A program made the position numbers and the translations under genes. The notes beneath the pieces are model-generated. The model saw nothing but the letters and a program-made list of their open reading frames with translations. It was not told the origin of the DNA and did no database searches. From assembly GCA_963719225.1 (NCBI GenBank), contig CAVRAY010000002.1, positions 576,001-640,000 on the forward strand: a stretch of 64,000 nt of DNA, given 5' to 3'. Positions 46,868 through 61,837 of the stretch are shown here, one piece after another (the first letter of the stretch is position 1; each line of letters begins with the position of its first letter). Source of the stretch: Thermoanaerobaculia bacterium (lineage in GTDB: Bacteria; Acidobacteriota; Thermoanaerobaculia; UBA5066).

Positions 46868-47891
46868 CCTCGAGTGCCACGGCACGCGTGTGGGCGGCGG
46901 TCGTCCCGCAGCAACCGCCGGCGAGCCGCGCGCCGAGCGCGACCCACTCCGTCGCGAGCGCCGCGTAGTCCTCCGGGGAGACCGGATCGCCGTACGTGTT
47001 GCCGTACGCGGCGAGCGGGACGCCGGGCGCGGCGCATGCGAGGCGCGCGAGGTCGCCCGAGAGGGCCCGGGCCGCGACGCAGTTGATCCCGAGCGCATCC
47101 GGCGGGACGGGCAGCGCGAAAAGCGCACGCGCGAACGCCTCGATCGGCTCGCCGGACAGCAAATGGCCGCTGCCATCCGTCACGCACAAGACGACGACCG
47201 GCAGTCCCGTGGCCGCCGCGGCGCGCGCGGCGGCCACGGCTTCGCGGACGGTGTTCATCGTCTCGACGAGGATGAGATCCACGCCCGCGGCGGCGAGAGC
47301 CGCCGCCATCTCCGCGTGTTCGGAGGAGATTTCTGCTTCGGAGGGGACTCGATCAGGTCGGTAGCAATCCTCGAGAGGTGCCAGCGAACCGGCTATTGAG
47401 ACGCCGCTGAAGATCTTCTTAGAAGGTCGGGTTGCGCCGCCGCTCTGGCTCGCGGCTCTACGCCCCTCGTCCAGCGGTGCGCCGCCCCTGCCCATGAGCG
47501 CCGCCGGGCGCCTCTGCTCCGCGGCCTCTTCACCCTTCGAAGAAATCTTCTCTTCCTCTTCTTCCTCTTCTCTTCCCTCCGCAGCCCGTCGCGCCACGTC
47601 CACAGCCCTGGCGATGAGCTCTCGCTGCGAGAGGGAGCAAGAAGACTCTCTGACGTTCCTCCCATGCAGCCGGAAGCTCGCGATCGTGAGGACGTCCGCC
47701 CCCGCTTCCGCGTTCTCGCGGTGGATCGCCGCGACGAGATCCGGCGCGTCGAGGAGGGCCTGCGCGCTCCAGAGGGGCGCCGGGAGGCGGGCGCCGCGCG
47801 CGAGCAGGTCTGTCCCGAGGGCCGCGTCGAGGACGAGCGGCGGCCCGGAGCGGAGACGGGCGCGGAGGAGAGAGGCGGTCCGAGCGGTCAC
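46818..47891 (-). CDS. Homocysteine S-methyltransferase family protein with in-frame insertion
   Basis: LDAALGT, WSA, AGADV, AGSLAPLEDCY, ETM, GINC, GGCCGT. Confidence 0.9.
   Translation of the reverse strand: MTARTASLLRARLRSGPPLVLDAALGTDLLARGARLPAPLWSAQALLDAPDLVAAIHRENAEAGADVLTIASFRLHGRNVRESSCSLSQRELIARAVDVARRAAEGREEEEEEEKISSKGEEAAEQRRPAALMGRGGAPLDEGRRAASQSGGATRPSKKIFSGVSIAGSLAPLEDCYRPDRVPSEAEISSEHAEMAAALAAAGVDLILVETMNTVREAVAAARAAAATGLPVVVLCVTDGSGHLLSGEPIEAFARALFALPVPPDALGINCVAARALSGDLARLACAAPGVPLAAYGNTYGDPVSPEDYAALATEWVALGARLAGGCCGTTAAHTRAVALEVRGNTRGSSSPSASGP
47409..47580. repeat. Inverted-motif element inside the methyltransferase gene
   Basis: GAAGATCTTCTTAGAAGG (47409-47426) and CCTTCGAAGAAATCTTC (47534-47550) plus a CT-only tract. 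Confidence 0.75.
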
Positions 47892-47942
47892 GACGGCCTT
47901 CCGGGGCCGAGGATATCGGGTCGCCTGCTAGCATTCCGGCCC

Positions 47943-48743
47943 ATGGCCTCAAAACGCTCCTGGGCCCTGGTTCTCGGGGCCTCGTCCGGATTCGGCGAGG
48001 CCGCGTCGCTCGCCCTTGCGCAGGCGGGCCGGAACGTCTTCGGCGTCCATCTCGACCGCAAGGCGACGCAGCCGAACGTGGACCGCATCACGGCGGCGAT
48101 CACGGCAGCCGGGGGCAGGCCTGTCTTCTTCAACATGAACGCGGCCGACGACGAGAGGCGTGCGGAGGCGATCGCCGAGATGGCGAAGGTCCTGGACGCG
48201 GACGGCGCCCGCGCGGGAATCGACGTCGTCCTCCACTCGCTCGCGTTCGGGACGCTCAAGCCGTTCCTCGCGGACGCGCCGGCGGACCGGATCGCGCGCG
48301 CCCAGATGGACATGACGCTCGACGTCATGGCGCACTCGCTCGTTTACTGGGTGCAGGACCTCCTCTCCGCGGGGCTCCTCGCCGAGGGCGGGCACGTCTT
48401 CGCGATGACGTCCGCCGGCGGGCACCGGATCTGGAAGTCCTATGGAGCGGTCTCGGCCGCGAAGGCGGCCCTCGAGAGCCACTGCCGGCAGCTCGCCGTC
48501 GAGCTCGTGACGCGGAAGATCGCCGTCAACGCGATCCGCGCGGGCGTCACGGACACGCCGGCGCTCCGGAAGATCCCGGGGAACGCCGAGATGATCCAGC
48601 GCTGCCTCGAGATCCACCCGGCAACGCGGCTCACGACGCCCGGCGACGTCGCGAAGGTCATCGTCGCGCTCTCGCAGCCCGACACGGTCTGGCTGAGCGG
48701 CAACGTGCTCGGCGTCGACGGCACGGAAGACCTCATCGGCTGA
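47943..48743 (+). CDS. SDR oxidoreductase, enoyl-ACP reductase (FabL/FabI)-like
   Basis: GASSGFG, HSLAFG, YGAVSAAKAALE, GVTDTPAL. Confidence 0.88.
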   Translation: MASKRSWALVLGASSGFGEAASLALAQAGRNVFGVHLDRKATQPNVDRITAAITAAGGRPVFFNMNAADDERRAEAIAEMAKVLDADGARAGIDVVLHSLAFGTLKPFLADAPADRIARAQMDMTLDVMAHSLVYWVQDLLSAGLLAEGGHVFAMTSAGGHRIWKSYGAVSAAKAALESHCRQLAVELVTRKIAVNAIRAGVTDTPALRKIPGNAEMIQRCLEIHPATRLTTPGDVAKVIVALSQPDTVWLSGNVLGVDGTEDLIG

Positions 48744-59373: not shown

Positions 59374-59431
59374 ATACGGCCGATCATGCCGCAGCGCCGG
59401 AGAACTCGCGCCTGCGCTACCATCGCGCCCC

Positions 59432-61837
59432 TTGGTCGCCCGCCCGGAAGATCTCCTCGAAGGCCTCAATCCCGAACAGGCCGCCGCCGTCTCGCACGGC
59501 GAGGGGCCGCTCCTCGTCCTCGCGGGGGCCGGCTCCGGGAAGACGCGCGTCCTGACGCGGCGCCTCGCGTGGCTCGTCGCGCGGGGCGTCCCGCAGGAGG
59601 CGATCGTCGCCGTCACGTTCACGAACAAGGCGGCGGGCGAGATGAAAGAGCGCGTCGGCGCGCTCCTCGGGACGGACCGCCCGCGCTCTTTCGTCGGGAC
59701 GTTCCACGCGTGGGGCGTGCGCCTCCTCAGGCGCTTCGCGGACGAGGCGGGTCTGCCGCGCGGATTCGTCGTCTTCGACGCGGACGACCAGCTCGCCGTC
59801 GTCAGGCGCGTCCTGAAGGACGTCGCGGTTCCCGAGAAGTCCGCGACCCCGCGCCAGATCCAGTCGAAGATCTCCGCCGCGAAGAACGAGGGGATCTCGC
59901 CCGACGAATTCCCGCGCCGCTTCGGCGACTTCCTCGGCTCGCGCCTCGCGGACGTCGCGCGCGCGTACGAGAAGTCGCTGAAGGCCGCCCACGCGCTCGA
60001 TTTCGACGACCTCCTCGTCCTTTCGGCGAGACTCGTCGCGTCCCACGACAAGGTGCGCGACCTCCTGAGGCGCTCCATCCGCCACCTCCTCGTCGACGAG
60101 TACCAGGACACGAACCGCGTCCAGGCGAAGCTCGTGAGGCTCGTCACGGGCGAGGCGGGAAACCTCTTCGTCGTCGGCGACGAGGACCAGTCCATCTACC
60201 GCTGGCGCGGCGCGGATGTCGCGAACATCCTCGATTTCGCGCGCGACTTCCCGTCCGCGAGGACCGTAAGGCTCGAGCGGAACTACCGCTCGACGGCGCC
60301 GATCCTGAAGGCGGCCGGCGCGGTCGTCGCGGAGAACCGGCGGCGGCTCGGCAAGACGCTCAAGGCGACGAAGCCGGGCGGCGAGAAGGTGCGCCTCGTC
60401 TCCTTCGACGAGGAGCGCGACGAGGCCCGGGAGATCGTCCAGCGCGTGGCCGCGGCGCGGCGCGCGCGGCCGCAGGGCGAGGTCGCGGTGCTCTTCCGGA
60501 CGAACGCGCAGTCCCGCCCGTTCGAGGATGAGCTCCTCCGGGCGAACCTGCCGTACATCCTCGTCGGCGGGACGAAGTTCTACGAGCGCGCCGAGATCAA
60601 GGACCTCCTCGCGTACCTGCGCCTCGCGCGCAACCCCGCGGACGACGTCTCGTTCCGGAGGGTCGTCAACGTTCCGGCGCGCGGCGTGGGCGCCGCGACG
60701 CTGGAGACGATCGAGGCGCACGCGGCCGAGAAGGGATCGTCGCTCTTCGGGGCGCTCGACGAGCTGCCTTCCGGCCTGACGGAGAGGGCGAGGAAGGCGC
60801 TGTCGGAGTTCCGCGGTCTCGTGATGCGCCTCGCGGACTTCGGCTCCGCGGAGGGCGGCGGGGCGGGAGCCGCGATGGCGTTCGCGCTCGAGGAGACCGG
60901 CCTCGCGAAGCTGTACGAGAACACGCTCGACCCGCAGGACGAGGCCCGCCGCGAGAACCTCGACGAGCTCCTCGCCGCCGCGCGCGAGCACGAGCGGGCG
61001 ACGTCGTGGGGCGCCGAGGGCGACGACCCGACGATCGCGGGCTTTCTCGACGCCGTGACGCTGAGGGCCGACGCGGACGAGGCGGACGAGCGGAAGGGCA
61101 TCCTCCTCATCACGCTCCACGCGGCCAAGGGGCTCGAGTTCGACGACGTCTTCCTCGCGGGCGCCGAGGACGGCTCGCTCCCGCACGCCTCCTCACGCGA
61201 CGACGACGACCAGTTCGAGGAGGAGCGGCGCCTCGCCTACGTCGGGATGACGCGCGCCAAGGAGCGCCTCACGATCTCGTGGGTGCGGCGCCGGATGGTG
61301 CGCGGCGAGTGGATGAGCCGCGACCGGTCTCCGTTCGTCGACGCGATCCCGGGGGAGGTCGTCGCGTACGAAGATCTGACGTCTGGCTTCGGAGGAAGAC
61401 CGGGGAGGGGGACCGGGGATTCGGATTTCCTAGAAGGTAGGTGGGGAAGGGGCTACAGCGGACGGCAGTCCTTCGGTGGTCAAGCGTTCGGCGGCCGCGG
61501 TGGCGCGCCCGCGGGGGGGGCCCTGTTTCCCGACTACGAAAACGAATCCCAGGAAGCCCCAGCCTCCGACTCTTCCTCTTTACCTTCCAAGAAATCCCTC
61601 TTCGGACGTACCCCGATGCGAAACATCACTCCCATCAGGGGGGTGATGAAGCGCACGCCGCCTCCGCCGACCGCCTCCGGCTATCGGCGCGGGTCGAAGG
61701 TGATGCACCCCGAATACGGGCTCGGCGTCGTCCTGACGGTGGAAGGCTCCGGCGACGCGGAGAAGGTCGTCGTCTACTTCGACCGGGCCGGCCGCAAGAA
61801 GTTCGTCGCGAAATTCGCGAACCTCTCGCCGGCCTGA
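59432..61837 (+). CDS. pcrA: UvrD/PcrA ATP-dependent DNA helicase
   Basis: [48 protein letters not shown]-terminal Tudor-like domain. Confidence 0.95.
61423..61597. repeat. Inverted-motif pair inside the helicase linker
   Basis: GGATTTCCTAGAAGGTA (61423-61439) and TACCTTCCAAGAAATCC (61581-61597), 15 of 17 positions complementary. Confidence 0.75.

Follow-up and report, generated by a model that had tools for sequence, protein, structure and literature searches.

Results

Facing pairs of a motif within and between genes

A 64,000-nucleotide stretch of a Thermoanaerobaculia bacterium genome (GenBank assembly GCA_963719225.1, contig CAVRAY010000002.1, positions 576,001 to 640,000 of the forward strand; hereafter, the window) carries four inward-facing pairs of a polar, A/T-rich motif. 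They lie in a methyltransferase gene, in an intergenic region, in glmU and in a helicase gene. The window is C2:576001–640000 of the source assembly, G000, which comprises 4.75 Mb in two contigs (C1 and C2) and is 97% complete. The pairs had been described from the window's letters, and all four were recovered with a position weight matrix (PWM) at 16–42 bits. Their core centres are 47420(+)/47540(−), 51328(+)/51402(−), 54077(+)/54172(−) and 61431(+)/61589(−), giving centre spacings of 120, 74, 95 and 158 bp. The sites and their host genes are as follows.

47401..47436, plus strand: pair 1 arm, 15.9 bits, inside a homocysteine S-methyltransferase-like gene (46818–47891, minus strand)
47524..47559, minus strand: pair 1 arm, 41.8 bits; the purine tract extends to ~47580 and encodes EEEEEEKISSK
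51309..51344, plus strand: pair 2 arm, 40.4 bits, between convergent short-chain dehydrogenase/reductase (SDR) and msrA genes
51386..51421, minus strand: pair 2 arm, 23.8 bits; the outer flank is a degenerate hexamer run to ~51460
53553..54984, plus strand: host gene glmU, as two open reading frames (ORFs) split by two frameshifts near 54040–54120, beside homopolymer runs
53723..53758, plus strand: single arm, 22.8 bits, in an N-terminal GlmU loop, within an in-frame insert that differs among genus members (0–10 residues)
54033..54068, plus strand: tandem extra arm in glmU, 28.5 bits
54058..54093, plus strand: pair 3 arm in glmU, 29.2 bits; a substitution with no indel, EEKDSS in the genus and EARDAT/EERDAT-type in outgroups
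54156..54191, minus strand: pair 3 arm in glmU, 17.4 bits; encodes LLTSKNLQ
59432..61837, plus strand: host gene for a PcrA/UvrD-type helicase
61412..61447, plus strand: pair 4 arm, 19.9 bits, in the low-complexity linker preceding the PcrA C-terminal domain
61573..61608, minus strand: pair 4 arm in pcrA, 32.5 bits; encodes PSKKSLF
13599..13634, plus strand: weak lone match, 12.2 bits, which may be a decayed arm

The consensus in its first written form matches exactly at only two places in the window. A back-to-back pair proposed at 53710–53747 reduces to one plus-strand arm (centre 53742, 22.8 bits), with the other arm scoring below 6 bits, and this arrangement is at background genome-wide. 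The tandem arm at 54052 and the two glmU frameshifts had been overlooked; the frameshifts are likely long-read errors, judging from the sequence, because relatives have intact frames of ~485 codons. The peptides SKKIFS, SKKNSEE and PSKKSLF were found in the ORFs as stated. Pair interiors are mutually unrelated, as had also been claimed: 28 of 209 match elsewhere in the genome, and those with multiple matches are mostly Ser/Thr kinase paralogs.

Motif structure and abundance

The motif matrix was grown from five window seeds until convergence. It describes a polar element of ~40 bases in which the core TTTCTTNGAAGG follows a purine tract and is itself followed by a tail of purines as far as about +15. 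The core is a short quasi-palindrome, TTC-N3-GAA, with an odd 3-bp spacer and polar flanks, and the matrix is identical for genic and intergenic sites. Homopolymer runs aside, the motif is the main source of over-represented 10- and 12-mers in the source assembly. At ≥18 bits, the assembly contains 737 sites, compared with 3, 3 and 2 in triplet shuffles. Coding DNA holds 460 sites, compared with 27–29 after genome-wide synonymous resampling and 51–63 after within-gene synonymous shuffling; codon-shuffled sequence therefore does not reproduce the frequency of the motif. According to dicodon gene calls, 465 of the 737 sites are genic, occupying all six frames on both strands, and 272 fall in intergenic DNA, which makes up ~13% of the genome. 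There is no overall replichore strand skew (159 plus and 166 minus on the left arm, 187 and 165 on the right). Counted as loci, the density is ~430 in 4.75 Mb.

The surrounding zone of A/T-ending codons is confirmed: the A/T fraction of four-fold sites rises from 0.10 genome-wide to 0.42–0.88 across the motif. Silent-site A/T forms a plateau of 0.19–0.25 between the arms and is back at background ~120 bp outside them. These data support the original prediction of an undescribed paired signal that overrides codon bias, and amino acids are altered as well. The motif had zero matches in Rfam and zero in plasmid sequences, and no description of it was found in a literature search that left most subscription papers and supplements outside its scope.

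Three viral contigs hold a 20-base motif match and could represent either viruses of the genus or fragments of host DNA. Other over-represented words of the source assembly, unrelated to the motif, include the CTGTGGTTCACG, TAGCAGGCTGCT and GCTTGATATCGT families (12-mers in 17–29 copies) and long poly-T/poly-G runs.

Pair geometry

Within 400 bp, the source assembly contains 270 facing, 49 and 31 tandem, and 14 back-to-back pairs. A facing partner (≥10 bits, 35–300 bp away) accompanies 76% of the 737 sites, compared with 4% at control positions 2 kb off, and a back-to-back partner accompanies 2%. The spacing of facing pairs peaks at 65–95 bp and tails past 250 bp, with most pairs at 65–220 bp; among strong sites, the best partner lies closer than 35 bp in 1 of 457. 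The lone arms are weakly biased by replichore (106 vs 74, p = 0.02). No helical phasing (10–11 bp) of pair spacing was detected, whether the kinase family described below was in or out (p 0.15–0.5), and a looping site in the sense of a rigid, short, protein-held loop is thus unsupported. Arms are as similar between pairs as within a pair (0.504 vs 0.504). Folding of 212 pairs yielded −9.0 kcal/mol for real halves and −9.3 kcal/mol for chimeric halves, and the folding of three window pairs relative to shuffles gave z values of −4.6, −2.3 and −1.6. Because spacing is unphased, arms are not co-matched and halves pair no better than chimeras, we infer that the two sites are read independently, as duplex DNA, via something flexible or moving.

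Origin of sites in host genes

With short or misframed rows excluded, the central GlmU arm was found in 19 of the 20 genus sequences aligned and in 0 of 10 outgroup loci; residues change without an indel. The motif is not an assembly artefact, since this site recurs in genus orthologs from other assemblies. The N-terminal GlmU arm, by contrast with the substituted central arm, sits in 0–10 residue inserts that differ between species, so that the comparison of orthologs gave substitution for one arm and short in-frame insertion for the other. Tandem extra arms and short in-frame inserts occur on the outer side of pairs. A spacing peak at 93 bp comes from a family of Ser/Thr kinases; here both arms stand in place of kinase-domain residues, and segment length is kept. 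Genome G049 holds the kinase pair, and among 13 other kinase segments (from G049, G050, G053 and G069) one more has a similar peptide. Substitution and short in-frame insertion thus created the sites where they now lie. In the source assembly, at least nine Ser/Thr kinase genes are arrayed at C1:2293000–2320000; the kinase N-lobe of each carries a 93-bp pair, with a variable poly-Ser insert next to it.

Over ~200 kb beside the dif-like site described below, sites were retained in orthologs in 53 of 60 comparisons with four relatives (16/17, 14/15, 14/18 and 9/10), comparisons that are not independent because all share the source assembly and the same sites. Silent A/T in the core was retained at 64–86% (n = 7–14 each), compared with 8–28% far off. 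Interiors behave differently: their amino-acid difference was 0.22–0.56 vs 0.11–0.23, gap columns numbered 7–22 vs 0.1–1.0 per 100 codons, silent divergence was 0.43–0.51 vs 0.31–0.45, and interior A/T bases were not retained.

These data bear on two simpler explanations. Relics or ends of mobile elements, such as miniature inverted-repeat transposable elements (MITEs), REPINs built from repetitive extragenic palindromes (REPs), or Rickettsia palindromic elements (RPEs), would account for the inverted arms, the modal spacing of 65–95 bp, the arms that sit in short in-frame inserts and the large intergenic share of sites. REP/REPIN, MITE and RPE units likewise have two short inverted arms around a spacer of ~70–110 bp, and RPEs also occur in frame. 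Here, however, arms replace host codons with no inserted unit, only single arms lying in short variable inserts; the interiors are orthologous host coding sequence without length change or a shared body, and the 93-bp peak is a gene family. REP/REPIN elements differ further, since the sites here are mostly genic and show neither hairpin selection nor shared spacer families. A search for the REP-associated Y1 transposase, RAYT, gave 0 matches in the source assembly (controls matched in 6 of 14), and the plasmid search was likewise empty. The analogy to RPEs and MITEs drawn in the original prediction is therefore unsupported, and we consider a mobile-element origin very improbable and largely refuted. 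The idea that the two arms form RNA or single-strand hairpins (terminators or cruciforms) draws on two of the three window pairs, which fold better than shuffles (z −4.6 and −2.3). It is not supported by the wider set, in which arms within a pair are no more alike than arms across pairs and real halves pair no better than chimeras; with no Rfam match and most pairs within genes, hairpins are the most improbable explanation of those considered.

Chromosome position and gene classes

Contig C2 is chimeric. Its 0–220 kb and 600–800 kb segments are inverted homologs with ~76% amino-acid identity, and its two glmU regions are nearest to different genomes (G007, 89%; G006, 88%). On this basis, the window DNA belongs to a second species within the genus, and its homologous counterpart lies 100–150 kb from dnaA. 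The tail of C2 past 800 kb looks alphaproteobacterial by eye and has zero motif sites. Position tests accordingly exclude C2 beyond 540 kb. Within the window, a lower-GC segment at 31780–33180 contains, by eye, two similar copies of ~250 bp flanking an apparent HigA/HigB-type toxin–antitoxin pair.

Landmarks in the source assembly are a dif-like site at C1:2037567 (hereafter, dif), a skew switch near 2.10 Mb, and parS with dnaA at C2:326–334 kb; this parS, distinct from the motif, adjoins parA1 at the origin. In 250-kb steps from dif, site-bearing genes per 100 kb number 9.8, 10.8, 7.6, 9.3, 7.6, 4.6, 3.9, 2.3 and 3.4. The drop from dif to origin is 2–4-fold in both the source assembly (Spearman −0.78 in 100-kb bins) and genome G019, where a manual count gave ~5.7 vs 2.7 per 100 kb. 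The terminus excess is present in every class of GC content at third codon positions (GC3), and also within paralog families (28/241 vs 8/258, odds ratio 3.4), where it is partly kinase-driven. In G053 only one arm is depleted, with 46 sites in 2.0 Mb around dif, 20 in 0.72 Mb on one arm, and 9 in 0.96 Mb on the other. G007 and G017 have no site adjoining dif. The main ribosomal protein cluster (C1:2683000–2725000), ~0.65 Mb from dif and far from the origin, has 5 sites in 42 kb. Near 740 kb on C2 of G019, origin-region DNA is joined straight to terminus-half DNA, reflecting either misassembly or rearrangement.

Near dif, sites were found in 9 of 65 family-core genes, 3 of 72 shared with the sister genus, 2 of 16 genus-shared, 1 of 10 subclade and 0 of 10 genome-specific genes; this trend is uneven and its numbers are small, and class counts are approximate because genes were called with our own dicodon model (3753 genes). 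Twelve of the 15 aminoacyl-tRNA synthetase genes located carry a site, compared with 10–16% expected by length, in a sample of which nine were picked for having sites, the unbiased rest giving 3 of 6 and about seven more genes not being located. The 139 genes with two or more sites include many that we take, from their N-terminal sequences, to be repair, tRNA-modification and cell-wall genes. Windows below 66% GC have ~1 site per 10 kb, compared with 3 at 68–70% GC. Genes near dif with GC3 below 0.8 are not site-poor (4/56). An integrase island is among the ten largest stretches free of sites, as is a type VI secretion-like cluster.

Taxonomic range

The motif 12-mer occurs 77–351 times in each of 27 of 27 genus genomes; counts are 4–44 in each of seven sister-genus genomes (with facing pairs listed in four) and 0–3 in the remaining 26 genomes of the family. 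Among 301 genomes drawn from the class, counts above 14 are confined to the genus (17 genomes) and G049; background rows of the class comparisons include five unpublished genomes. In 420 kb of G069, from a motif-free genus, there were zero motif matches and no substitute A/T-rich word, and the possibility of another motif dialect in that genus was rejected on this evidence. The motif thus belongs to one clade and represents one event. A protein of ~800 residues, which we take to be Tex-like from its domains, gave matches in 20 of 26 motif-negative family genomes, with one partial match besides, and in 0 of 34 motif-positive genomes; this pattern counts as one event because the genomes form one clade.

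Candidate readers and competence genes

Competence genes are widespread in the family genomes searched: ComEC in 5 of 5, DprA in 40 of 41, PilT in 41 of 41, and ComEA-type helix–hairpin–helix (HhH) proteins in 58 of 60. A motif pair lies upstream of comEA1 in the source assembly and in G003, and comEA2 has motif sites in 23 of 23 genus genomes. The secreted tandem-HhH protein ComEA2 (C1:1007226–1007921 in the source assembly) has a flexible linker rewritten by motif arms (SPSKKSSSSS), and no motif site in the genome scores higher than the one in this linker. The first HhH domain takes a Lys/Trp-rich form specific to the genus, and the model of that domain is a small helical fold. ComEA2 was tried as the reader and fails on presence and absence: 23 of the 27 genus genomes have it, as do 5 of 7 in the sister genus, where the copies lack the site. 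It is a weak lead.

A second parA–parB operon lies ~1 kb or less from dif (C1:2037567–2039524), a linkage that is the same in 22 of the 22 family loci listed, and a candidate palindrome lies 20–30 bp from dif beside parA2–parB2. ParB2 was rejected as the reader: most family genomes, motif-free ones included, have two ParB genes, and the ParB2 recognition helix is near-identical in motif-free genera. SMC is found in motif-positive and motif-negative family genomes alike. No small GIY-YIG (Ssn) gene was found in the main chromosome of the source assembly; the two matches were UvrC-sized and an 83-codon gene in the foreign tail. Narrow screens of small basic proteins and genes near dif absent from G069, and of the neighbours of smc, parAB, ftsK and gyrase genes, gave no reader candidate.

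Discussion

The motif, which is kept at the DNA level within essential genes too, is likely read by a protein, most likely in the uptake and recombination of relatives' DNA. In its broadest form, our proposal is that an obligate facing pair of polar sites, served by a flexible or sliding reader, either selects DNA for uptake and recombination or marks the terminus half of the chromosome; we give this close to an even chance. Tentatively, and at somewhat less than even, we propose that the facing pair is a two-site DNA-uptake or recombination signal, an obligate-pair counterpart of the DNA uptake sequence (DUS) of Neisseria and the uptake signal sequence (USS) of Pasteurellaceae. In such a scheme, a flexible two-headed or dimeric competence receptor would grip both arms, and the 65–220 bp between them would be bent into a U-turn entering the uptake channel. 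Pair-bearing fragments would be taken up and recombined more often, and pairs would for that reason accumulate in genes shared by relatives, even at amino-acid cost. The weakest step of the scheme concerns the terminus excess, which could arise because conversions are better inherited in late-replicating DNA or because counter-selection is weaker in that region.

Several features resemble those of DUS and USS. Like them, the motif occurs in hundreds of copies on both strands, is clade-restricted, and lies in genes in several frames (PMC2397512; bioRxiv 10.1101/2025.10.24.684340). The evolutionary signature also matches the published one: a motif kept while neighbouring DNA diverges faster, placement in core, tRNA synthetase and repair genes, and competence genes present in the genome. 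Raised divergence adjoining conserved DUS/USS is reported in PMC2397512, and Neisseriaceae DUS are enriched in aminoacyl-tRNA synthesis and repair genes according to bioRxiv 10.1101/2025.10.24.684340. In gene-class bias the sites look more like DUS, an analogy absent from the original prediction, than like matS or parS. Nonetheless, because they lack the single-site unit that defines a DUS, they are DUS-like in action at best and are not classed as DUS.

A number of observations count against an uptake function. The density here is several times below that of DUS and USS. The dif gradient persists among core genes (14/120 vs 4/111, p = 0.027; second species, 5/110), and no such dif-centred feature was found for DUS; core-gene bias, moreover, is expected from any slowly built signal. 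The unit here is a facing pair 65–220 bp apart and mostly genic, whereas a DUS is single or forms a terminator stem; DUS that do pair act as terminators, their copies lying close together, and a single DUS is enough (PMC2397512). Clade members are putatively competent, judging from their genes, and those genes are equally present in motif-free genera. No site was found near dprA, one pilT or the pilin genes. A ComP search matched 0 of 60 genomes, the same search giving no match in control genomes either. ComEA2 is missing in four motif-rich genomes (90–99% complete) and present in two motif-free ones, and no receptor emerged from the ParB2, ComEA2, ComP, RAYT and Ssn tests.

Two further rivals place the reader in the cytoplasm. 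The sites may serve a clade-specific chromosome-organising protein, in a role like that of MatP–matS, XerD–XDS or Noc–NBS. Loaded at two facing sites, or sliding from one to the other, such a protein would give the terminus half its shape or insulate it, for instance by restraining SMC. This rival we regard as rather unlikely, although it explains the gradient and the minimum spacing better than the uptake proposal does and the gene-class bias worse. The dif gradient is independent of GC3, holds within families and core genes and recurs in G019; the scarcity of pairs closer than ~65 bp suggests two abutting footprints; and occupancy could shield interiors from repair, which would explain their A/T gain. 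Terminus and nucleoid systems comprise tens of sites, compared with the hundreds here. Dedicated terminus systems are known (PMC11894783). With the sites of matS–MatP, XDS–XerD, NBS–Noc and parS–ParB (PMC11894783; PMC7383237), the motif has in common its tolerance within genes and, in the source assembly and G019, a position-dependent density centred on dif; the core TTC-N3-GAA also resembles ParB/Noc half-sites. However, the motif differs from terminus and nucleoid sites in its polar flanks and obligate facing pairs, and from parS and NBS, which are even, symmetric 16-bp palindromes, in its odd 3-bp spacer. The distribution is a gradient and not a domain, is incomplete in G053, where one arm only is depleted, and leaves G007 and G017 without a site adjoining dif. 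Helical phasing is absent, and the tRNA synthetase preference is unexplained. Motif-free genera also have SMC and the ParA2/ParB2 pair, with almost the same ParB2 recognition helix; the ParB paralog at dif is not distributed with the motif. The analogy to matS and parS drawn in the original prediction gains partial support from the dif-centred gradient, but the paralog at dif is unchanged in motif-free genera. Improbable, in our judgement, is a signal for recombination or repair with a role like that of Chi or Ssn/NTS. Facing sites would start or stop a nuclease or helicase, the DNA between them would undergo repeated conversion or patching, and alleles with sites would prevail. The silent A/T plateau with its decay within ~120 bp outside, the interiors that gain indels and substitutions without keeping A/T bases, the tandem extra arms and short in-frame inserts on the outer side, and the weak lone-arm replichore bias would all fit. 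dRS3/NTS elements (PMC11893778) are likewise hundreds of oriented, quasi-palindromic repeats linked to transformation, with faster-evolving neighbours. In contrast to the sites described here, which are mostly coding and show no hairpin selection, NTS are hairpins and flank ssn genes (PMC11893778). The main chromosome yielded no Ssn gene, there is no overall strand skew, and a cut site would be expected to erode rather than be conserved.

Whatever reads them, the sites indicate that selection or drive at the DNA level alters residues in GlmU, kinases and tRNA synthetases and leaves ~430 small, fast-evolving patches. The motif is usable as a genus-specific binning marker; the foreign contig tail without it is an instance here. 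If our proposal in its broadest form is correct, essential proteins have been rewritten by the signal, and each enclosed 65–220 bp is a fast-evolving patch. The system would then be a third, independently evolved and two-site, uptake-signal system, or else a terminus-organising system without a described counterpart. The sequence-specific uptake signals on record come from two proteobacterial families, and the terminus-organising sites from a small number of model species; a genus of uncultured soil Acidobacteria with a conserved two-site signal would add a new geometry to either list.

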